From positions 1 to 16,705 of the forward strand of contig CAYJVY010000016.1 of NCBI GenBank assembly GCA_964373795.1: a stretch of 16,705 bases of DNA, read 5' to 3'. The notes beneath the pieces are model-generated. The model had not been told where the DNA came from and did no database searches. It saw nothing but the letters and a program-made list of their open reading frames with translations. Shown piece after piece: positions 665 through 15,882 of the stretch (the stretch's first letter is position 1; each line of letters starts with the position of its first letter). Both the position numbers and the translations under genes were made by a program. This DNA is from an uncultured archaeon. GTDB lineage: Archaea; Iainarchaeota; Iainarchaeia; Iainarchaeales; DATDZZ01.

Positions 665-1627
665 ATGCCTAAAAAAATTAATGAAGCAGAGTTTGTTGCA
701 CATTTTTTAGAATTAGGAATGGATGACGTTGCAAGAGCTGGAGGAAAAGGCGCTCAACTAGGAGAAATGTTTAATGCTGGATTGCCTGTTCCGCCAGGAT
801 TTGTGGTTTTAACTGCAAGCTTTGACATGTTCATGCATGACAATAATTTGGATTCAAAAATCTATAAATTAATTGAAAAGGTAAACGAAAAAGACACTCA
901 TGAATTGGAAAGAGTTTCAAAAGAAATAAAGGAAATGATTTTGGCAGCAAAAATTCCTTCATCTGTAGAAAAATCAGTTCACGATGAATTTAAGAAATTA
1001 AAAGCAGAGTTTGTTGCAGTTCGCTCTAGCGCAACAGCTGAAGATGCTTCAACTGCTTCTTGGGCAGGAGAATTAGATACTTTTACAAATATTACTTTTG
1101 ATTCATTAGTGCATTCAGTTAGAAAATGTTGGGCTTCATTGTTTAGTCCTAGAGCAATTTTTTATAGAATTGAAAAAAACTTAAGACATGAAGAAGTTTC
1201 AGTTGGAGTTGTTGTACAGAAAATGATTCAATCAGAGATAGCAGGAGTTGCTTTCACTGTTCATCCAGTAACAAAAGATTTTGGAAAAATAGTAATTGAA
1301 GGAGCTTGGGGTTTAGGTGAAAGCGTTGTATCTGGATCTGTAACGCCAGACAATTATATTGTGGATAAAAATGGATGGTTTATTGATTCAATTGAAGTGG
1401 CATCTCAAGAACACATGTTGACAAAAGTTGAAGGCAAGACTACAAAAATTCAAGTTCCAGAACATAAAAAAGAAATGCAAAAGCTTTCAGGACAACAAAT
1501 AATTGAGTTAGCAAAAATGTGTAAAAAAATTGAAGAATACTATAAGCATCCTCAAGACATTGAATGGGCTTTAGAAGCAAACAAACTCTATTTATTGCAA
1601 ACAAGGCCAATAACTACTTTAAAATAA
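665..1627 (+). CDS. Stand-alone PEP/pyruvate-binding ATP-grasp domain protein (N-terminal domain of PEP synthase / pyruvate phosphate dikinase family)
   Basis: 320-aa ORF with family motifs GGKGAQLGEM, VAVRSSATAED, VVVQKMIQSE, AGVAFTVHP, GAWGLGESVVSG, DIEWA and a C-terminal LLQTRPITT, which marks the end of the ATP-grasp domain. There is no phosphohistidine swivel domain or TIM-barrel domain downstream. An AGTGA SD-like element at 656-660 sits 4 nt before the ATG. Confidence 0.8.
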   Translation: MPKKINEAEFVAHFLELGMDDVARAGGKGAQLGEMFNAGLPVPPGFVVLTASFDMFMHDNNLDSKIYKLIEKVNEKDTHELERVSKEIKEMILAAKIPSSVEKSVHDEFKKLKAEFVAVRSSATAEDASTASWAGELDTFTNITFDSLVHSVRKCWASLFSPRAIFYRIEKNLRHEEVSVGVVVQKMIQSEIAGVAFTVHPVTKDFGKIVIEGAWGLGESVVSGSVTPDNYIVDKNGWFIDSIEVASQEHMLTKVEGKTTKIQVPEHKKEMQKLSGQQIIELAKMCKKIEEYYKHPQDIEWALEANKLYLLQTRPITTLK

Positions 1628-4717: not shown

Positions 4718-5806
4718 TTATGGCAAGAAATCGTTTGATTTAATTTTTTCAGGCAAGTATTTTTCTGTTATAAATCGAATTCCTTTTTTTGTTAATGCTT
4801 CTAGTTCTAGTTTTATTGCTTTGGCTTTCATGTTTTCAAATTCGTCTTGCCATTCTTTTTTCTTAAACCATTCATATTTTTTCATTTCGTTTAATCTTTT
4901 TTCATCTAATTTGTTTAACTTAATTGTTACTTCTTTTGGAATTTTAAATGTTTCAACATCTTTTGTTGTTAAACCAATATATTTTGCTTTTGGAGTTGCA
5001 AGTTTTTCTTCAGAGTATGAAAGAGAAATTGAGCCTTGTTTTATTACTGAATAAATATACATTCCCCATGGATCTGCATCCATTAAGCAATAAATTGGTA
5101 AATCAAATTCTTTATTTAATCTTTGAGCTAGTCTTCTTTCAGCTCTTGAAGGCTGGCCTCTCCCAGTTAAAATAATGCATTTGTTTTTCTTCCAAAAGGC
5201 ATCTTCATTGAATCTTTTCCATACAGCATCTTTTTCAATGAATAAAACGTATTCGGCATCTATGTCCTTGAATTCAATTTTTTCAGGTTCTACATTTGAT
5301 GGAACTCCCCACCCTCCTGACCCCATTTTGTTTAAATCAATTGTGTCTTTACCGTCTTTTACTTTCATGTTTCCAACAATTACTCCTTTAGATGAAGCAG
5401 CTAAATGCAATTCTTCTCTTAACAAGTCAAGTGATGCTTCAATGTCTTCAATTAGGGGATCTGATTCCTCTTGTGATTCAAAACTGTTCTCTTGAGTTCC
5501 AGGAATTGTGTGTTTTAATGCATAATATAAATCACGAATTGAAACAGTTGCTTCTTCTGCTATTACTTTTTTTATTTCAGAGGTAACTAAAACTGTTTGC
5601 ATGAATTTTCTTGCATGCATTACATTCAAGAATTGTCTTTCAGATGTTTTGTCTCCTAATTTAATTGTTTGACTTTTTTGATCAAAGAAAACATTTCCAA
5701 GAGTTCTTACTGGAAGCTTAATTGAAGGCTCGTCTTTTTTTTCAATTTGTTTTACTACGGTTTCCCCAATTGATTCAAGTCTTTTTATTACTTCTTTGTC
5801 ATTCAT
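4718..5806 (-). CDS. top6A: DNA topoisomerase VI subunit A (Spo11 family)
   Basis: 362-aa ORF. The catalytic-tyrosine region is IRDLYYALK. Toprim motifs are FIEKDAVW (Glu) and LMDADPWG (DxD). The ATG overlaps the top6B stop (ATGA, 5803-5806), and a GGTGA SD lies 6 nt upstream. Confidence 0.93.
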   Translation of the reverse strand: MNDKEVIKRLESIGETVVKQIEKKDEPSIKLPVRTLGNVFFDQKSQTIKLGDKTSERQFLNVMHARKFMQTVLVTSEIKKVIAEEATVSIRDLYYALKHTIPGTQENSFESQEESDPLIEDIEASLDLLREELHLAASSKGVIVGNMKVKDGKDTIDLNKMGSGGWGVPSNVEPEKIEFKDIDAEYVLFIEKDAVWKRFNEDAFWKKNKCIILTGRGQPSRAERRLAQRLNKEFDLPIYCLMDADPWGMYIYSVIKQGSISLSYSEEKLATPKAKYIGLTTKDVETFKIPKEVTIKLNKLDEKRLNEMKKYEWFKKKEWQDEFENMKAKAIKLELEALTKKGIRFITEKYLPEKIKSNDFLP

Positions 5807-8800
5807 TCAAACTCACCTTCTTCTTTTACTTTTTCTTCTTTTATTACTTCTTCTTTTTCTTCAAGTTTTCCTTCTTTTTTAAGTTTTTCCTCAAGCTTTA
5901 ATTTTTTTGAAACAATGTCTACTAATTTTTTTTCAATGCTTTCACGTTTTTCTTTTGTTAACTCTGATAAACCAATTGCTATTTCTTGAGCGTATTTCAT
6001 GAAAAGTTTTTTCTTTTCTTGTTTTTCTTGTTCTCTTCTGGATTCAGATATGTGTTTCCAAATTCTTCTTCCTGCATCCATTATTCCTAGTCTTATTTCT
6101 TCTATTACTTCTTGTTCTTCAGAGATTGCTTGTTTTCCTGCTGAAGTGTAAGGAATGTGAACAGAAATTACATTCACTAATACTGTTAATGGCACGTTAT
6201 CTAAGTCTTTTACTCCGTATCTTTTCCAGTCAACTGATTCAACTGCTTTTGTTGTAGCGCATCCTCCTGCATCAAATAACAACGGAACTTTATTTGCAAA
6301 CCTCATTAACTCGATTTTTTTTTGCTCCCCTGTTTCTTCAGAGGTTCCTTGAAATACTTTTCCTGCATTTCCACCAAAAGCTATTCCTATTTCTACTTGG
6401 AATGGAAATCCTCCTTGATAAACTGTCGGTTTTCTAGTTATAACTGAAATGAATTCTGGTTGAACTATTGCTTTCATTGATTTTTCAATTCTTTCCTCTC
6501 CTATTGGCCTTAAAGCATCTAGTCTTGGAGCAATGAATTCAATTTTTTTGAATTGTTTTATTATTTCTTCTGCTTCTTCCCAAGTTAATTTTTTTGGATC
6601 CTTGTTTAAATCAAATGAAACTCCTTTAGATATTTCTTCAATTGCTTTGTCCCCCATTCTATCAAAAGAGTTTTTTAAAAAACTTGAAATCTTTCTTCCA
6701 TCAGTGTGTTTTGCTAGAGTACTTAATTCGTCTACTGTTACTCCTTTTGGATGAGGCTGAATTGCAATTGGTTTTAATGGAATTGTTTTAGATGTTCTGT
6801 GAAAGATTGTTGTTTCTCCTAAGGGATCAGAGAATTTGACTTGAACATGTGGATTAGCAATAACTGTTCTCCTCAAATATTCTAAAGGAGATTGATCGTT
6901 GTTAATGTATTTTACTCCCTTGAATTGAGCTTTAATTGCTAGTCCTTTAAATTTTTTATCTAAATCTCTTAAATTAATTATTTTTGGTTGATTTGTTTTC
7001 GCATCAACTGCTACTTCGCATGCAAAAACTTCTTTAGCTGTTCCAGAAATTACTTGAACTGTTTTACCTGTAGTCATTTGAGAAAGCATTGTACAACCAG
7101 CTGCTCCAATTCCTTGTTGGCCTCTTTGTTGAATTAGTCTATGAAATTTTGTTCCAGCAAGTAACTGTCCCAATGCTTTTCCAACTGTTTGCTTTGTTAA
7201 TCCAGGACCATTATCTGTAACTGTTATTTCTAAATGGTCTTCAGCTATTTGAGCAATTTTAACTTCAATATCAGGCAAAATATGTGATTCCTCACAAGCA
7301 TCAACTGAGTTGTGTAAACAAATTGCTCCAAATCCACCTACGAAATTCTCATCTTTTTCAATTGAGTAATCATAAACGTATTCGTTTTCTTTTGGAATTC
7401 TTTCTTCAATTTCTGTTATTGGCAGAATTCCTAAATCTCCTGCAATAAATCTTGCTGCGCTTTCTGTTATTTGTGCTTCATTTATTTTTAGAGAAGCAAT
7501 TTTTTCATAGCTTACAATTTTTTGGTTTCTTTGACTTATTGCCCATTTTAATTTTGGTTCAATTATTGTTGTCATGTCTCCTATTTCCATTGGATAGAAA
7601 TTTAGTGGCGAGTTTTTTTGTTCTGTATAGAACTCTATTTTGTAGTTTTGGCCAAATCTTGCAAGCTTGTCTTTAACAAGTCTTTGTTCTGCTTTTTTTT
7701 GGCTAAAACTATATGAATAACCCAATCCTGAAAGAAGATATTGTAATTGTGTTGAAAGTTTTTTGCTTGCAGTAACTAAAGTAATTTTTTCCTTGAGCGA
7801 AAAATTTGATTTCTTGATACATTCAAAAATTTTTCCTGACGGAAAACCATCTCCAACAGCGTATGCAATCAAGAATTCTTTGGCTTTTTCTTTTCCTGAA
7901 CTAAAAACCAGTGTGGGAATTGATTTTGTTTTAGCATTTTCTCCACACTTTAACACTTTTTTTAGCATTATTGAAATTGTTTTACTGTTAATTTTGACAT
8001 TCACAGCTGTAGCATGGGCTTTCTTTATAAGCGGCCTTATATTGAAAACCTTTTCGAACAAGTCTGCAGTATATTCAATTAATTCTTTTTCATGCGCCTC
8101 AAACGAAAAGTTTACTTCTACATTGTTTTTTCTTGTAGAACCTTCTGCTACAAACAATCCAAGTATTTGCATCAATTCTTTTGTTATTGGCATTAAAGGT
8201 TTGAGTTTGTACTTTGAATGTCTTTCCCCTATTTCACAGTTATAAAAAATCTTTTTTTCTTTTTCGTTCAATATTTTTAAAAGCCTTAAAGGCAGTCTAT
8301 CACATTTCATGTACTTGTTGTAAACCCCATAATGTTGTTCTTTTTTTGTTAGAAGCGATTTTATTTTGTTTTTCAGCTCCTTGTCAGAGTATAATATTTT
8401 TTTTACCCCGAAAACACTGAACTCTTTTAACTCTTTGTCATCAAGTTTTAGGAATTCTTCCAATAAATTTATTTCATTTATTGTTTCCTGTATCCATGGC
8501 TTTCGTGGAACAACTAAATAATCTCCAATCCTTAAATTTTCAGCTTTAACTTCTTCTATTACTCCCTTCCTTAAAGTAAATAATCCATGATGCTTTGTTG
8601 CTTCTACAAACCTGTTTCCAAGAGTTTTTATTTTGAATATTCTTTCACCATTTTCCATTTTGTGTCTATGCAATGACTTAACTTCTTTGAAAACAAGTTT
8701 TTGTGTCTCTTTGTCAAAGCAAAGCACTTCAAATTTTGGAAACTCTCTTAATGATTGCAATTCTTTTTCTTTATTTTCATTGAAACCATGCAAAGACATT

Positions 8801-9063
8801 TTATTGTCTATTACTTTCCCGATTTCTTCAAATCTTATTTCGCCGTTTTCTCTCACAACTGTTGGCGTCTCAGATGTCACGGAATTTGTTACATATTCGT
8901 GGACAATTGTTGTAAGGGTTTTAATTTTTCCAGTTAAACCAAGCATTTGCATGTTTTTTTTAAAGAATTCTGCAACAGAGTGTTCTTTGAATTCTTTTGC
9001 TAAATGTTCCGCCGTAATTTGTGTTTCTGTTTTAGTTTCTTCAACCAATTTCTTTCCCTCCAA
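5803..9063 (-). CDS. top6B: DNA topoisomerase VI subunit B, interrupted by an intein
   Basis: 1086-aa ORF. The GHKL N-box EYVTN/SVDA is split by an insertion. The G1 box TDNGPGL and G2 box RGQQGIGAAG lie downstream, followed by transducer-like sequence and a K/E-rich tail. The exteins total 561 aa, the normal Top6B size range. There is no ATG upstream of the conserved SVAEFFKKN, so the start must be TTG. Candidates are 9063 (abutting the KH gene stop) or TTG 9048, which has GGAGGG (9061-9056) 7 nt upstream. Confidence 0.9.
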   Translation of the reverse strand: MEGKKLVEETKTETQITAEHLAKEFKEHSVAEFFKKNMQMLGLTGKIKTLTTIVHEYVTNSVTSETPTVVRENGEIRFEEIGKVIDNKMSLHGFNENKEKELQSLREFPKFEVLCFDKETQKLVFKEVKSLHRHKMENGERIFKIKTLGNRFVEATKHHGLFTLRKGVIEEVKAENLRIGDYLVVPRKPWIQETINEINLLEEFLKLDDKELKEFSVFGVKKILYSDKELKNKIKSLLTKKEQHYGVYNKYMKCDRLPLRLLKILNEKEKKIFYNCEIGERHSKYKLKPLMPITKELMQILGLFVAEGSTRKNNVEVNFSFEAHEKELIEYTADLFEKVFNIRPLIKKAHATAVNVKINSKTISIMLKKVLKCGENAKTKSIPTLVFSSGKEKAKEFLIAYAVGDGFPSGKIFECIKKSNFSLKEKITLVTASKKLSTQLQYLLSGLGYSYSFSQKKAEQRLVKDKLARFGQNYKIEFYTEQKNSPLNFYPMEIGDMTTIIEPKLKWAISQRNQKIVSYEKIASLKINEAQITESAARFIAGDLGILPITEIEERIPKENEYVYDYSIEKDENFVGGFGAICLHNSVDACEESHILPDIEVKIAQIAEDHLEITVTDNGPGLTKQTVGKALGQLLAGTKFHRLIQQRGQQGIGAAGCTMLSQMTTGKTVQVISGTAKEVFACEVAVDAKTNQPKIINLRDLDKKFKGLAIKAQFKGVKYINNDQSPLEYLRRTVIANPHVQVKFSDPLGETTIFHRTSKTIPLKPIAIQPHPKGVTVDELSTLAKHTDGRKISSFLKNSFDRMGDKAIEEISKGVSFDLNKDPKKLTWEEAEEIIKQFKKIEFIAPRLDALRPIGEERIEKSMKAIVQPEFISVITRKPTVYQGGFPFQVEIGIAFGGNAGKVFQGTSEETGEQKKIELMRFANKVPLLFDAGGCATTKAVESVDWKRYGVKDLDNVPLTVLVNVISVHIPYTSAGKQAISEEQEVIEEIRLGIMDAGRRIWKHISESRREQEKQEKKKLFMKYAQEIAIGLSELTKEKRESIEKKLVDIVSKKLKLEEKLKKEGKLEEKEEVIKEEKVKEEGEFE
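7309..8883 (-). mobile_element. Intein (525 aa) with a LAGLIDADG homing-endonuclease domain, within top6B
   Basis: The N-terminal splice junction is ...HEYVTN|SVTSETPTVV (Ser1, block A-like), and block B is TKHH. LAGLIDADG motifs are ILGLFVAEGS (8137-8166) and LIAYAVGDG (7846-7872). The C-terminal blocks are VYDYSIEKDENFVGGFGAICLHN|S (His-Asn, then +1 Ser at 7306-7308). Removing it restores EYVTN-SVDACEE. Confidence 0.85.
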
Positions 9064-9751: not shown

Positions 9752-10435
9752 TTACTTTTTTCTTTCCCCTAATAAGAAAGTATAAACAAGTGATCCTAAA
9801 ACTCCTCCTAAGACTGGGCCAACAAAGTAAACCCATAATTGTTCTAATGCAGTGCCACCTGCTTTTCCTAGTAAAACAGGCACTACTGCAGGCCCTAAAG
9901 ATCTAGCTGGATTTAAAGAAGCTCCTGAAAAAGCAATTCCTGAAAGATGTGCAACTAGTAAGTAAAACCCAATTGCAAGTGCTGCATGATGAGCTGAAGG
10001 AGATTTTTCATTTGTAACTGATAAAATTACAATCAAAAATAATGCTGTTGCTATTACCTCAAAAATTAATGCTGCATTTAATCCGAAGCCTCCAACAGTT
10101 GTTGCTCCTAAACTATTTCCTCCAATCATTGCAAAAAGAACTAAAGATGCTAGAAGTCCTCCAACAAATTGAGCAAGCAAGTAAGGAACTACCTTGTTTG
10201 CTGGAAATCTTTTTGCAATCCATAAAGCAAGTGTAACTACTGGATTAAAATGCCCTCCAGATAATGGGCCAAAAGTATAAGCTAAAACAGCTAATACAAG
10301 TCCTGCTGTGAATGCAATTGCTACAAGGTTTACTAAAGTAAAGCCTTGAGTTAAAGCAAGTGAACCCATAATTGTTGCAGTAATTGCAAAAACTAATCCA
10401 AATGTTCCAAGTAATTCTGCCACTAAGTCTTTCAT
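9752..10435 (-). CDS. MIP-family channel (aquaporin/aquaglyceroporin)
   Basis: The ORF track starts at TTG 10483. ATG 10435 (MKDLVAELLG) is preferred because GGAGGGAG lies immediately upstream (10446-10439). First motif is HFNPVVT (NPV), second is SLNPARSLGP (NPA). The protein is hydrophobic throughout, compatible with the six-TM fold of the MIP family. Confidence 0.85.
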   Translation of the reverse strand: MKDLVAELLGTFGLVFAITATIMGSLALTQGFTLVNLVAIAFTAGLVLAVLAYTFGPLSGGHFNPVVTLALWIAKRFPANKVVPYLLAQFVGGLLASLVLFAMIGGNSLGATTVGGFGLNAALIFEVIATALFLIVILSVTNEKSPSAHHAALAIGFYLLVAHLSGIAFSGASLNPARSLGPAVVPVLLGKAGGTALEQLWVYFVGPVLGGVLGSLVYTFLLGERKK

Positions 10436-10493
10436 TATCTCCCTCCAAAAATAGTTAAAAATAGTTAATTGAATTAACTTCAATCAATTTAAA

Positions 10494-11319: not shown

Positions 11320-13179
11320 ATGAAAGTAAATTATTTAATTCTTGCAGTCTTGCTTGTCTTAATTCTTTTGGCTGGCTGTATTAGTGGAAAAGGTAGTGAC
11401 TCAAATGCAGACGTGAATGCAGACGTGAATGCTGATTTAAATTCCGGGAAAACTGTTTCTAATTCTTCTGGAAAATTGTCTTGTGAAATTATTTCTCCAA
11501 TAAGTGTGCTAATTGGTTCTCCAGCAAATTTTAGTTTCAAATTAGAAGGCGGAGAAGCTGAAAGCGTTGAATGGAGTTTTGGAGGGGAAGGAGAAGGCCC
11601 TTCAAATATTGAAAGCCCTTCATTTAAATACAAGTCAACTGGAAAAAAATCAGTAAGCCTTATGGTTACAACTAGTTCTGGAGAAAAAGTTGAATGCAAT
11701 GTAAATGTTAACTCAGTTGGATATAACGATTTAAGAATTACCAAAATTAAAGCAAATTCAGTTAAACCTGTTTTGAGTTTAACTGCTTCTGCTACTTCGC
11801 TTAATGGAGTGGCTCCTTTAACTGTTGAATTTGATGCAACAGCTGTTGGAGGAATTGCTCCTACAAGAAATTATACTTTTAATTGGTTAGGGGATTTACA
11901 AGAAAATAATATTCAAAATCCGAGCAAAACTTTTTCAGTAGAAGGAACTTATGCAGTTGTTGCAGAGGTTTTTGATGAAGGAGTTCCGCAAGAATTCGAG
12001 TTTGATGTTGAAGTTGAAGGAGGCTTGGCTCAATATAGCGGAGGAAAACCTGTTTATCGTTATGCTTGGACTTTTGGAGATGGAGGAACGTCTAATGAAA
12101 AAAGTCCTAAACATTTTTTCAATAAAAAAGGACAATTCCCTGTAACAATTAAGGTTACAGATGAATTATTTCAAGACAATTTTGATGCAGCTGAAAAAGC
12201 AAAACATTTAGCAGAGCATTTTTTTGAAGTAGGAGTTGAATCTCAGAGAGCGCTTAGTAATAAATTAAATATTGTTGTTGGAACGCCTCCTATTGTATTA
12301 ACAGAAGAAGCAGTTCTTGAATGTAGAATTAATTTGTCTCAAGGAAGTACTTTTTTTGCTAACAAAAAAGATTCAACTGAAAATAACTTGAAAGGATTTA
12401 ATTCAACTCATTGGGAAGGCTATAATTATGCTCCGCGCGAATTAAAAGTTAAAATTATTAGAACTCCAAACAAAGAAAAATTAAATGAATCTTACACTGA
12501 ATTTGTTTCCAGGCCAGTTAATAAAGAGGTTGCATGGTATAATCCAACTCTCAAACCAGACATATCTTATTACAATGATTTCTTTAATGAAACAGGGCCT
12601 TATTTAAAGGAATATAAGGTTAAAGATGAAAAAGGAAATTCCGAAATTGGAGTGGAAGGAAAATTTAATTTAATTTCTTATAAAAATACTCCTTATTGGT
12701 TAAAAGAATTCAAGGAATGGTCTGATCCAGCAAAAGAGGCTGAAAGCTATGATGACATTGTATTATATCAAATTACTGCAAAACAAAATTTGTGTACAAT
12801 AAAAGTTTACTCAATGTTATCTGAAGGAGCAGGATTAGCTTTGGATAAATCTAAACTGGAAGCATATGCAAAAAACCAAGCAGAACAAGTAATGAAATTA
12901 ATTATCAATAATTCTTCAATAATTTGTTCTGATAATGTTCCTGAAGTTAAAGGAGTTGCAAGGAATTATTCTGTGGAAGTTTACAATGAATTCACTCCTG
13001 AAAAAGTTAGAGACTATTGTATAATGGCTGACAAAATTCAATATGATACTTACAAGCATTACAGTTTTTGGTGTGATGGAAAATTTTGTTCTTTTGATGG
13101 AGCAGATTTAGAAGAAATTAATGGAAAAAAATTCAGAAAAAACTCTTTGTTTCATCCAACAACCAGTAATTCAAATTAA
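11320..13179 (+). CDS. Secreted/lipid-anchored PKD-repeat surface protein with an uncharacterised C-terminal half
   Basis: 619-aa ORF. It has a signal peptide with a lipobox-like LLAGC. PKD-type repeat signatures are WSFGGEGEGPSNIESPSFKY and WTFGDGGTSNEKSPKHFFNKKGQFPVTIKVTD. From about residue 290 to the end I recognised no motifs. Confidence 0.75.
   Translation: MKVNYLILAVLLVLILLAGCISGKGSDSNADVNADVNADLNSGKTVSNSSGKLSCEIISPISVLIGSPANFSFKLEGGEAESVEWSFGGEGEGPSNIESPSFKYKSTGKKSVSLMVTTSSGEKVECNVNVNSVGYNDLRITKIKANSVKPVLSLTASATSLNGVAPLTVEFDATAVGGIAPTRNYTFNWLGDLQENNIQNPSKTFSVEGTYAVVAEVFDEGVPQEFEFDVEVEGGLAQYSGGKPVYRYAWTFGDGGTSNEKSPKHFFNKKGQFPVTIKVTDELFQDNFDAAEKAKHLAEHFFEVGVESQRALSNKLNIVVGTPPIVLTEEAVLECRINLSQGSTFFANKKDSTENNLKGFNSTHWEGYNYAPRELKVKIIRTPNKEKLNESYTEFVSRPVNKEVAWYNPTLKPDISYYNDFFNETGPYLKEYKVKDEKGNSEIGVEGKFNLISYKNTPYWLKEFKEWSDPAKEAESYDDIVLYQITAKQNLCTIKVYSMLSEGAGLALDKSKLEAYAKNQAEQVMKLIINNSSIICSDNVPEVKGVARNYSVEVYNEFTPEKVRDYCIMADKIQYDTYKHYSFWCDGKFCSFDGADLEEINGKKFRKNSLFHPTTSNSN
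11404..11439 (+). repeat. 12-bp in-frame tandem repeat (about 3 copies) encoding NADV-NADV-NADL
   Basis: AATGCAGACGTG at 11404-11415 and 11416-11427 are identical. AATGCTGATTTA at 11428-11439 is a diverged copy. The repeat lies just after the lipobox Cys. Confidence 0.8.
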
Positions 13180-13808
13180 ATTTTTGCTTTAAAAAAATTG
13201 TTTGCATACTTAAATTCTTTTACTAATTTTTTGTAAAAATAGTTTGAAAAACTTTTAACAAAAGGCAAGTAAAAGTTTTTGGTTTCAAATAAAATTCTTT
13301 TAACTTTTTTTAATCTAGTATTTTTCACAAGACATTGAATATTATTTAATCTGTCAGCTGCTTTAACTATTTTTGCTTCTAAAGGTGCTTTTTTTAATTG
13401 TTTAAAATATGCTTTATCTCTTTTTAATTTGATTTCTTCCAAGTTTTTTCCATCAAAATCAATTAGTCTTGGCTTGCTTAAAAATTTTACCATTGAAAAA
13501 ATTTTTTTCCCAAATTTTTTCTTAAATGCACTTTCTTTAATTCTTGGATCATCTTCTAATGTGTCATGTAATAATGCCATTGCAACAAGTGTTTCCGGGG
13601 TTTTCTTTTCCTTGAATAAGTAAAACTCAATTACATTCACTGTAACAGGATAAATATGTTCTTCTAAATAACTTGAGCCATCGTCTCTTAATTGTTTTTT
13701 ATGAGATTTAATTGCTTGAATTAAAGCTTTTTTAATTAACTTGGTTTCACTTACTTTAAATTCTTTCAATTTTTCAAGGAGCTCTTTTTTTGTTAAATGA
13801 GGATACAT
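13176..13808 (-). CDS. HD-domain hydrolase of the RelA/SpoT (Mesh1-like, (p)ppGpp hydrolase) type
   Basis: The ORF track starts at TTG 13847. ATG 13808 is preferred because a TATA-like TATTTATT (13838-13831) lies about 27 nt upstream. Motifs are RDDGSSYLEEHIYPV, ALLHDTLEDD and KAADRLNN. Confidence 0.7.
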   Translation of the reverse strand: MYPHLTKKELLEKLKEFKVSETKLIKKALIQAIKSHKKQLRDDGSSYLEEHIYPVTVNVIEFYLFKEKKTPETLVAMALLHDTLEDDPRIKESAFKKKFGKKIFSMVKFLSKPRLIDFDGKNLEEIKLKRDKAYFKQLKKAPLEAKIVKAADRLNNIQCLVKNTRLKKVKRILFETKNFYLPFVKSFSNYFYKKLVKEFKYANNFFKAKI

Positions 13809-13866
13809 CTTAAAATTAAAGCTAAAGAGAAATAAATAGTTTTGCAATTCCTTGCATTTTTTTGTA

Positions 13867-14511: not shown

Positions 14512-14916
14512 CTAAATTTTTTTAATTGGATGCAATGCCCCGCAAGCAGTGCATTTAAGCATTTTCACTCCATGCTCTTCAATAAATTTAGTGTCAGGTT
14601 TTTTGCATTCAAAGCATAAAACAAATTGATTCAAATAACTGTTAAAAATTTTTTCAACTTGAAGTTGATTAAATTTTCCATTAATTATTGCTCTTTCTCC
14701 TTCAACTCCAACCGCTGTTGCAACCTCTCCTGTAATAAATTTAATTAAGTGTTTTTCTTCTCTGTTCAAGGATTTAATTATTTGATTAAAGTTTTTCACA
14801 ATAGTTTTATTTCCTTGAATAAAAGAATCTGGTTTAGGCATTTCAAATCTTTCCCTAGTTAAAGCTTCTTTAGGTAAGGAAAGATATAATCTGTCAAGCA
14901 TTTTTTCATATTCCAT
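14512..14916 (-). CDS. eif2b: Translation initiation factor aIF-2 beta subunit
   Basis: 134-aa ORF. It has an N-terminal YEKMLDRLY, a central helix-turn-helix-like core and a C-terminal zinc ribbon CFEC...CTACG. TATA box TTTAAAAA (14948-14941) lies about 27 nt upstream of the ATG. Confidence 0.9.
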   Translation of the reverse strand: MEYEKMLDRLYLSLPKEALTRERFEMPKPDSFIQGNKTIVKNFNQIIKSLNREEKHLIKFITGEVATAVGVEGERAIINGKFNQLQVEKIFNSYLNQFVLCFECKKPDTKFIEEHGVKMLKCTACGALHPIKKI

Positions 14917-14947
14917 TTGAAAGAATTATTCTACTTTACATTTTTAA

Positions 14948-15212
14948 ATTCGCCGTTCGCGGTTCATCCCGCGAAGCTGTGCACTACCTTTGGTAGAGCT
15001 TCGGCCTAACCAGTCGAACGGTTCAGGGTTCAGTCCTTGAAGCGCGTTCAGCCGGCAAGGCTGAAGACTGACGTCGGCCCTCGTGCTCGACGCACGAGAC
15101 GTCGCAGCCGGCGAAGCTGAGTGTCCGTAGGCCTTGCGTAGTTAGTGCGACACAGTCTCGCCGGCTGCTCGACAAGCGAAGCGAGCTCGTGTCATATGAC
15201 ATTGTACTCGCC
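14948..15212 (-). ncRNA. GC-rich structured RNA gene, class unresolved (best guess divergent RNase P RNA; SRP RNA not excluded)
   Basis: My hand count for 15001-15180 is 112/180 G+C (~62%), against ~30% in the flanks. Dense helices are present, numbered on the minus strand with nt 1 = 15212. One is AGCCGGCGA (47-55) with UCGCCGGCU (99-107). Another is GACGU-CUCGUGC-loop GUCGA-GCACGAG-bulge-ACGUC (110-143). A third is CAGCC-UUGCC-GGCUG (150-164). A fourth is CGAAGCU-CUACC-AAA-GGUAG-UGCAC-AGCUUCG (210-241). A fifth is UUCGCGG-GAUGAA-CCGCGAA (238-257). TATA-like TTTAAAT (15243-15237) would place a start near G 15212. The strand call rests on this promoter and one G-U pair only. Confidence 0.6.
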
Positions 15213-15288
15213 AAATGTGACTGCAATTGAAAAAGCATTTAAAGAAGGAATTGCTTTATATTATTGAATTACTTTCAAGGTTTGTTAA

Positions 15289-15882
15289 ATGACTGAGAAA
15301 AAAAAGTTTGAATTTGATTTTTATAAACTTGGTTTGTTTGCCTTGGCTTTAATAATTATTTTTTCAATTATTGCAATAATTGTTTTCAAAATTGATTTAG
15401 TGAAATTATTATTTTCTTTGAAAGAATTTGGTTTAGTTGGATTGTTTGTTGCAGCGTTTGTTGCAAATGCATCTCTTTTCTTGGTTACCCCGCTTGACTT
15501 AATTATTTTTACTTTTGGAGTGGTTTACCCTCCTTTAATGGTTGCAATTGCTGCAGGGCTTGGAGCAGCAATTGGGGAAATGTCTGGATATATTGTTGGA
15601 TTAGGGGGAAGAGAAACAATTGCAAAAGTTAAATTAGAACATTTACGGCATTTAGATGAAGTTTATGCAAAAATAAAGCTTTTTGGTTTTCCGTTCATCG
15701 TGTTTGGAGCATTTATTCCTTTTCCATTTGATTTAATTGGAATTACTTGCGGGTTATTTAGATATACTTGGTATAAGTTTTTTGCTGCAGCATTAATTGG
15801 AAAATTTTTTAGATACTTGTTAGTTTCATATGCTGGTTTGTATGGAGTTCAATTAATTAAAACAATTTTTTTAATTGGTTAA
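15289..15882 (+). CDS. VTT/DedA-superfamily membrane protein (YqaA-like, COG1238-like)
   Basis: 197-aa polytopic membrane ORF. FVANASLFLVTPLDLIIF, GLGAAIGEMSGYIVGLGGRE and FIPFPFDLIGITCG...GKFFRY resemble the YqaA pattern. TATA-like TTTATATT (15254-15261) lies about 30 nt upstream of the ATG. Confidence 0.55.
   Translation: MTEKKKFEFDFYKLGLFALALIIIFSIIAIIVFKIDLVKLLFSLKEFGLVGLFVAAFVANASLFLVTPLDLIIFTFGVVYPPLMVAIAAGLGAAIGEMSGYIVGLGGRETIAKVKLEHLRHLDEVYAKIKLFGFPFIVFGAFIPFPFDLIGITCGLFRYTWYKFFAAALIGKFFRYLLVSYAGLYGVQLIKTIFLIG

Follow-up and report, generated by a model that had tools for sequence, protein, structure and literature searches.

We analysed the contig CAYJVY010000016.1, a stretch of 16,705 nucleotides (the 16.7-kb window), from an uncultured archaeon whose nearest genomes are metagenome-assembled genomes (MAGs) of Candidatus Iainarchaeum (Diapherotrites, DPANN), with aIF-2beta sequences 43–64% identical to its own; the closest aIF-2beta in a collection of 5.8 billion sequences was 76% identical. 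Between the divergent genes for a VTT-domain membrane protein and aIF-2beta lies a G+C-rich, hairpin-dense element, which an earlier reading of the DNA letters (the original prediction) had correctly described as adjoining aIF-2 beta in a reduced archaeon. We tentatively consider that it is best explained as a lineage-specific, independently transcribed, structured small RNA. Nucleotides (nt) of the element are numbered along the minus strand, nt 1 being position 15212. The locus has the following features:

14948–15212, minus strand: G+C-rich, hairpin-dense element, a putative structured RNA of ~263 nt (from composition and the z-score of the fold)
14951–15212, minus strand: the G+C block proper, within the element
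15212 and 14948, minus strand: the two ends of the element, 5' GGCGAG at 15212 and 3' ...GGCGAAU at 14948
15237–15243, minus strand: TATA-like box TTTAAAT, at −31 to −25 relative to the G at 15212; the element's candidate promoter
14512–14916, minus strand: aIF-2 beta gene (Pfam PF01873, E 1.8e-35), directly downstream of the element on the same strand
14940–14948, minus strand: aIF-2beta TATA box TTTAAAAAT, at −32 to −24 relative to the ATG at 14916, directly adjoining the element's 3' end
15289–15882, plus strand: gene of the VTT-domain (DedA-like) membrane protein (Pfam PF09335, E 2.4e-17), divergent from aIF-2 beta
15255–15263, plus strand: TATA box TTTATATTA of the VTT gene, at −34 to −26 from the ATG at 15289; also present in the related locus L018

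The G+C content of positions 14948–15212 is 60%, against 30.1% in the remaining window, and falls to 16–25% in the direct flanks of the element; the richest other 265-nt stretch of the window reaches 40%. The element is thus the sole G+C island of the window, as originally noticed, and the only one of its kind in the 23.9 kb of this genome that could be assembled, to which all our statements on copy number refer. Its folding energy is equally distinctive. The minus strand yielded −120.9 kcal/mol, compared with −94.6 ± 5.1 kcal/mol for 200 dinucleotide-preserving shuffles (z −5.15), and the plus strand −122.4 kcal/mol, compared with −98.5 ± 5.3 kcal/mol for its own 200 shuffles (z −4.53); none of the shuffles of either strand folded as well. 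This excess of folding energy does not separate one strand from the other. The element contains at least seven perfect Watson-Crick hairpins of 5–12 bp each, where at least five strong local helices had been predicted, and its G+C content is 67% in predicted stems and 46% at unpaired positions. We detected no coding signal: there was no Pfam match, and a 71-aa open reading frame (ORF) and all six translated frames had no homologue among 5.8 billion proteins. We accordingly rejected a protein-coding gene; the translation is also of low complexity.

This composition island is a real element. By a cluster look-up through an aIF-2beta 98% identical to that of the window, we traced the Logan contig L140 (run ERR3478686), which matches the window at 99.93% identity over 7.3 kb and begins at 14972, within the element. 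Three more Logan contigs (L141, L142 and L143, from ERR3478686, ERR4904391 and ERR4904390) carry a VTT gene identical to the window's and end within the element, at 15093, 15085 and 15093, with 100% identity to the window. Together, they cover positions 15085/15093–15212 on the VTT side and 14948–14972 on the aIF-2beta side. Since both junctions are seen in independent assemblies, a chimeric MAG contig is very unlikely. The Logan copies, being identical to the window, contribute no covariation. All four contigs, from three runs, break within 14973–15092, and two independent runs do so at the identical base. Such breaks suggest graph branching (at a repeat elsewhere, a polymorphism or an inversion) rather than random low coverage; they could stem from a repeat, a polymorphism or a sequencing bias.

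On the minus strand, the minimum-energy and centroid folds alike are a series of local hairpins that a 5-bp helix closes:

15180–15212 (nt 1–33), minus strand: H1, the 5' hairpin, GGCGAGU/GCUCGCU enclosing a GUCA/UGAC stem (from pair probabilities and the minimum-energy fold)
nt 34–38/259–263, minus strand: 5-bp closing helix of the multibranch core (minimum-energy fold)
15101–15173 (nt 40–112), minus strand: H2, a long hairpin built on the 12-bp helix GCAGCCGGCGAG/CUUCGCCGGCUGC, its apical loop 23 nt long (inverted repeat I1, minimum-energy fold)
15079–15099 (nt 114–134), minus strand: H3, CUCGUGC-GUCGA-GCACGAG, extendable by a flanking GACGUC/GACGUC pair
15000–15065 (nt 148–213), minus strand: H4, a long irregular hairpin with the apical loop ACUGAA, containing three G.U pairs that the plus strand lacks
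14981–14999 (nt 214–232), minus strand: H5, CUACC-AAA-GGUAG
14956–14975 (nt 238–257), minus strand: H6, a 7-bp stem UUCGCGG/CCGCGAA with the hexaloop GAUGAA

The perfect 12-bp GCCGGC helix of H2 pairs nt 45–56 with nt 98–109, and an alternative local hairpin within H4, UUCAGCC-UUGCC-GGCUGAA, is 5 kcal/mol less favourable than the predicted one. The original prediction that no helix joins the 5' and 3' ends applies to the extreme 5' end, which is unpaired with the 3' end, but not to the core, which is closed by the pairing of nt 34–38 with nt 259–263. All the short strings listed in that prediction do occur at the minus-strand positions given for them: GCCGGC at nt 48–53, 101–106 and 157–162 (and nowhere else in the other 23.6 kb of host DNA), GGCGAG or GGCGAA at nt 1–6, 51–56 and 259–264, UUCGCC at nt 98–103, ACUGAACCC at nt 179–187, GGUUAGGCCG at nt 202–211, GGAUGAA at nt 244–250 and GAACGGCGAAU at nt 255–265. 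The alternative registers in which the GCCGGC and GGCGA segments had been supposed to pair can indeed be drawn, but at a cost of 8.9–15.1 kcal/mol (+13.3, +8.9 and +15.1 kcal/mol for the three registers that we forced). A module of 16–19 nt (CAGCYUYGCSGGMUG...) is present in three copies, with a degenerate fourth noted by eye, which suggests that the element grew by internal duplication.

Several features bear on strand and ends. The distance between the TTTAAAT box and the G at 15212 is the canonical archaeal spacing between TATA box and transcription start, and reading the plus strand revealed no box at the right distance from the opposite boundary. The minus-strand fold contains 8 G.U pairs and the plus-strand fold 5; two in H1 exist on the minus strand only, and the three of H4 fall within a 65-nt hairpin with near-certain pair probabilities. 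The apical loops GUCGA and GAUGAA have the form G...A on the minus strand only. Both the count of G.U pairs and these loops point, mildly, to the minus strand. A near-palindromic box, GC(T)ATTTAAAGC, was also observed at 15235–15245; it recurs upstream of aIF-2beta in L018 (~806–818), L010 and L013, where the proximal TATA box is present as well. Either a second promoter or a site bound by a regulator is conceivable.

For comparison, we collected 23 related loci (17 from GTDB, 2 of the closest protein relatives and 4 more; designated by L numbers), most of which keep the gene order signal-peptide peptidase/VTT divergent from aIF-2beta/DUF424/aIF-1A/RIO. In the window, aIF-2beta is followed on the minus strand by DUF424, aIF-1A and an HD protein, and the VTT gene by the signal-peptide peptidase gene, and the remaining genes include a RIO kinase, an aquaporin, a KH protein and topoisomerase VI subunits A and B. 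Homologous spacers next to aIF-2beta had been proposed as material for a covariation test, but the element was absent from all 23 loci, with no G+C island at the site and no nhmmer match at E ≤ 10, the DNA of relatives having been searched at these loci and not over full genomes. The spacer between VTT and aIF-2beta measures ~60–143 bp in L003, L007, L014, L015, L018, L144 and L145, versus 372 bp in the window. Larger spacers of other relatives hold extra ORFs, and the only enlarged spacer free of ORFs (318 bp, in L005) shows neither structure (z +0.46) nor G+C richness. Judged at the divergence of these loci, the element is either an insertion or a lineage-specific gene. A search of 21 of the related loci with Rfam retrieved one tRNA (in L016) and no other match. 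A related genome (39% G+C overall) has a local G+C enrichment, without similarity to the element, where the signal-peptide peptidase gene ends and in the spacer after it (8721–8880 in L146 and 5681–5830 in L147).

Searches beyond these loci were also negative. A blastn search (word size 11) against phages and plasmids retrieved nothing real; the 16-mer of the repeat module had chance matches only in IMG/VR and an 18-mer had none; and the 23-mer of the apical loop had no match in the JGI metagenomes. As gene callers tend to place spurious ORFs over G+C-rich RNA genes, we also exploited the false ORF of the element: six degenerate 24-nt patterns derived from it gave no confirmed match in IMG/VR and the JGI metagenomes, and neither its 71-aa product nor the six frames matched any of the 5.8 billion proteins. 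The matches reported by an exhaustive HMMER search were long tandem-repeat proteins whose scores sum many weak repeat matches, and we discarded them. Elsewhere in the window, sequences complementary to the element or repeating parts of it were just chance matches of 9–11 nt.

G+C content has served to indicate structured RNA in extremophile genomes with an A+T bias (PMC3150283, citing Klein et al. 2002). Together with this indicator, the G+C island, its strong fold, the lack of coding signal and the geometry of the candidate promoter make a structured small RNA the best single explanation of the element. The RNA gene would be ~263 nt long and run on the minus strand from 15212 to ~14950, between the promoters of the VTT gene and of the aIF-2beta/DUF424/aIF-1A operon. 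The archaeal RNA polymerase would start at the G at 15212, ~25 nt past the TTTAAAT box, and the transcript would fold into the 5' hairpin followed by a five-hairpin multibranch core closed by the 5-bp helix. Its G+C-rich stems would stabilise the fold against the A+T-ward mutation pressure of the genome, and it would act in trans, probably as a protein-bound structural RNA. Transcription of the element, its strand and its ends, as well as its action in trans and its binding of protein, are all features that we infer.

The G+C-island non-coding RNA genes of A+T-rich archaea, the Hgc RNAs found in screens of the type of Klein, Misulovin & Eddy 2002 (as cited in PMC3150283), offer the closest parallel to such a gene: an intergenic island of ~60% G+C in a genome of 30%, a fold beyond that of shuffled sequences, the absence of coding capacity and a TATA-like box at a fitting distance. 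Unlike them, the element matches no described family (HgcC, HgcE, HgcF and HgcG are in Rfam) and has no homologue in the related loci searched, which makes it an orphan of a single lineage. We think it possible, though we would not press the point, that it founds an undescribed class of structured RNAs of ~260 nt, of which it would so far be the sole member. It would have recently arisen in, or been captured by, one Candidatus Iainarchaeum-like lineage, between two promoters, and would use a TATA-like box already present there. Of the outcomes that the original prediction had allowed for, an undescribed structured RNA remains the best reading, though an unproven one; a new RNA class is possible for an element known from one population, and a DNA-level insertion fits several of the same facts.

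Several observations weigh against a structured RNA gene. No homologue of the element was found in the 23 syntenic loci, phages, plasmids, IMG/VR, the JGI metagenomes or the protein collections, and the closest relative (L018, aIF-2beta 76% identical) has a spacer of 143 bp without it. Relatives lacking the element have a box similar to TTTAAAT, TATTTAAAGC, so that TTTAAAT may not be a promoter belonging to the element. An oligo-U terminator is missing: the element is followed by UUU alone and by no terminator-like site. The plus strand folds equally well, and nearly all the local stems are perfect palindromes, which hairpins acting at the DNA level would fit too. Finally, the predicted loops are G+C-enriched as well and internal repeats are present, both as expected of a young insertion.

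The most serious alternative, which we consider somewhat unlikely, is a recent insertion of a G+C-rich palindromic DNA element, either selfish, like miniature inverted-repeat transposable elements (MITEs) or the 'GC clusters' of mitochondria, or a fragment acquired horizontally. Its hairpins would act at the DNA level or not at all, and any transcript would be incidental. The clean pattern of presence and absence (23 related loci without the element, with spacers as short as 60–143 bp in the seven named above) is as an insertion would leave it, and so are the perfect palindromic stems, equally good on both strands, the triplicate module and GCCGGC core, and loops of 46% G+C, as if the sequence had not yet decayed to the A+T bias of the host. 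ATTT occurs at both flanks, as a possible 4-bp target duplication, although this is weak evidence in flanks of 16–25% G+C, and the breaks of the four Logan contigs within the element are of the kind that occurs at repeats or polymorphic sites. However, the element is present in a single copy, with no other G+C cluster or module core in the 23.9 kb; terminal inverted repeats are lacking; phages, plasmids, IMG/VR and the JGI metagenomes contained nothing similar; and no transposase or integrase gene lies nearby, the window being free of mobile-element genes. Yeast mitochondrial GC clusters, Rickettsia palindromic elements and archaeal MITEs are multi-copy and usually 30–150 bp long. The element resembles them as a G+C-rich, palindrome-dense block in an A+T-rich spacer, by its presence or absence, its repeated modules and the possible flanking direct repeat, and it differs from them by its 263 bp, its single copy in 23.9 kb, its lack of terminal inverted repeats and the absence of relatives in the collections searched. 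The two explanations are not mutually exclusive, as an inserted element may be transcribed.

It is distinctly less probable that the element acts in cis, as a structured 5' leader or a regulatory or insulator element of the aIF-2beta/DUF424/aIF-1A operon, read through from the distal TATA-like box and using the mutually exclusive GCCGGC and GCUUCG pairings as a switch. Its orientation is that of the operon and it ends 31 nt ahead of the start codon, with no terminator between it and aIF-2beta; the distal box resembles one in relatives, and several mutually exclusive pairings can be formed. However, the conserved proximal TATA box of aIF-2beta (−32 to −24) predicts a leaderless mRNA, as in relatives. 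A ATTTAAAA box lies at the matching distance from the start codon in L010, L012, L013 and L015; aIF-2beta therefore retains a promoter of its own, from which an essentially leaderless mRNA is predicted, so that the element is not needed as a leader. In addition, no relative has such a leader, the alternative folds are 5–15 kcal/mol worse than the minimum-energy fold and do not make a balanced switch, and no riboswitch or leader family of Rfam matched. Concerning the start codon itself, the public annotation places the start of aIF-2beta at a downstream ATG (129 aa, P0001; region 14901–14916), but the alignment with relatives begins at the ATG at 14916 (MEYEKML..., 134 aa), apparently the true start.

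We also compared the element with known RNA families. The original prediction had recommended a search with Rfam models, which assigned no family. With Rfam release 15, the whole window gave no match at the gathering score, including to the archaeal RNase P and signal recognition particle (SRP) models. With lax filters and E ≤ 10, region 14850–15320 gave just two matches to C/D small nucleolar RNAs, at E 2.7 and 3.9 and with 14–16 bits versus gathering scores of 50–70, which are due to chance. ARAGORN detected no tRNA or tmRNA. Among the weaker likenesses, readings of GUUCGAC and UUGGUAGAGC as tRNA-like arms (T-arm and D-arm) were discarded for their wrong closing pairs and loop sizes, a 5S rRNA or sarcin-ricin-loop likeness because it consisted of short strings without a model match, and a degenerate CRISPR array for its spacing of 56 and 84 nt and low repeat identity.

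Orphan G+C-rich RNAs of A+T-rich archaea have often proved to be H/ACA guides, and this precedent, together with several hairpins, in one of which a GAUGA string lies within the loop, would suit a multi-hairpin modification guide RNA, H/ACA-like or C/D-like and bound by L7Ae. We nevertheless regard such a guide as very unlikely. No C box (RUGAUGA) occurs on either strand, and the single GAUGA string is 3' of all CUGA strings. ACA is found at nt 8, 21, 89 and 233 of the minus strand and at nt 203, 225 and 252 of the plus strand, but never after a hairpin bearing an internal pseudouridylation pocket. The GAUGAA loop had been proposed to be K-loop-like and a potential L7Ae site, an idea that we abandoned: the tandem sheared G.A pairs that define K-turns and K-loops need at least three intervening nucleotides, and here a single U separates the two GA dinucleotides, a geometry from which we infer that such pairs are impossible. 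The multi-hairpin archaeal H/ACA RNAs with their K-turns or K-loops are therefore similar to the element in their tandem G+C-rich hairpins and different from it in having pseudouridylation pockets, ACA or ANA after the hairpins and, as far as this geometry tells, a feasible K-turn or K-loop.

It is exceedingly improbable that the element is an RNase P RNA or SRP (7S) RNA that has strongly diverged or been reduced, as the original prediction had put forward. Size and G+C richness would suit a stable RNA of an A+T-rich archaeon, and for RNase P there are, in addition, short strings like segments of the bacterial RNA and a possible 7-bp pairing of UUCGCCG (nt 98–104) with CGGCGAA (nt 258–264), reminiscent of P4. 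In RNase P RNA, the conserved regions CR-I and CR-V form the 5' and the 3' strand of P4, respectively. None of their familiar consensus patterns was found on either strand: neither GGAAAGUCC (CR-I) with up to 2 mismatches, an absence already noticed, nor GAGGAAAGUCC with up to 3, nor the universal CR-I GNAANNUCNGNG and CR-V ACNNNANNNNGNNUA, nor CR-V ACAGAANNCGGCUUA, the nearest string being ACUGAA at nt 179, one mismatch from ACAGAA. Forcing the P4-like pairing costs 8.9 kcal/mol because nt 98–109 are already paired with nt 45–56 in the 12-bp helix of H2, and the predicted fold has no terminal pairing of the two ends of the element of P1 or helix-5 type. The claimed collinearity of motifs of the 3' half with RNase P RNA comes down to short strings, backed by no model-based test. 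For SRP RNA, regular expressions for the helix-8 signature, a GNAR tetraloop followed by the (G)GA/AGCA motif, had no match on either strand, in agreement with the original reading; the AGCA strings at nt 44 and 126 are in a stem or at a loop-stem boundary of hairpins without GNAR tetraloops. There was also no Rfam match to either RNA at the gathering score or at E ≤ 10, and an essential, universal RNA is unlikely to escape sequence detection in all the related loci and collections searched.

Compared with archaeal RNase P RNAs (types A, M and minimal T), the element has a similar size range, G+C richness and multi-hairpin form, the possible 7-bp long-range pairing and the short strings, but no CR-I, CR-V, P1 or covariance-model match, and the P4-like pairing is disfavoured. 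With archaeal SRP (7S) RNA it shares a length of about 265–300 nt, the G+C richness and a single locus, but not the helix-8 GNAR and AGCA motif, the long helix 5, the Alu-domain loops or a model match. For at least one member of the Diapherotrites, the full set of five archaeal RNase P proteins has been reported (PMC4919917), which speaks for a conventional RNase P in this phylum. In the literature, we found no account of a reduced RNase P or SRP RNA in DPANN, nor of Diapherotrites non-coding RNAs or of the three sequencing runs. We thus reject the RNase P, SRP, tRNA, C/D and H/ACA readings. Last, foreign G+C-rich DNA fused into the MAG contig during assembly would account for a composition foreign to the contig and for the breaks of short-read contigs within the element, but it is scarcely conceivable given the 100% identity with which four Logan contigs of three further runs extend into the element from its two sides, and given the exact placement of the element between two intact promoters.

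The neighbourhood itself also departs from that of the relatives. An HD-domain gene and a PKD-domain protein (13176–13847 and 11320–13179) lie between aIF-1A and RIO, and the aquaporin (9752–10483) lies between RIO and the KH protein, whereas L003, L007, L144 and L146 have a compact aIF-1A/RIO/KH/Top6B order. From these sequence comparisons, the neighbourhood is seen to have taken up several insertions besides the G+C-rich element. Topoisomerase VI subunit B (5803–9063, minus strand, 1086 aa) contains an intein with a LAGLIDADG homing-endonuclease domain in its ATPase region, whereas the proteins of L144 and L146 are uninterrupted (564–573 aa). In L141 (2625–8790), to the right of the window, the same organism encodes an MCM helicase of more than 2300 aa with at least three intein/LAGLIDADG insertions, compared with 705 aa in L146; the host genome seems unusually intein-rich. 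At 665–1627 (plus strand), a 320-aa ORF encodes just the N-terminal ATP-binding domain of pyruvate phosphate dikinase/PEP synthase (PF01326), and no phosphohistidine or PEP-utilising domains were detected in the adjoining ORFs.

Whichever of the two leading explanations holds, a lineage-specific structured RNA or an inserted DNA element, the outcome for the idea of a hidden RNase P or SRP RNA is negative. The finding rests on one population and allows no generalisation at present. An insertion, if that is what the element is, would show that G+C-cluster elements of the mitochondrial kind can occur in A+T-rich genomes of archaea too. If it is instead a functional RNA, its absence from the relative with the 76% identical aIF-2beta would date its origin. 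Small DPANN genomes are thought to keep little dispensable DNA. An element both transcribed and functional would be a lineage-restricted stable RNA in a small-genome DPANN archaeon and, as the founding member of its class, would show, as is rarely possible, how a new stable RNA gene is born within a reduced DPANN genome.

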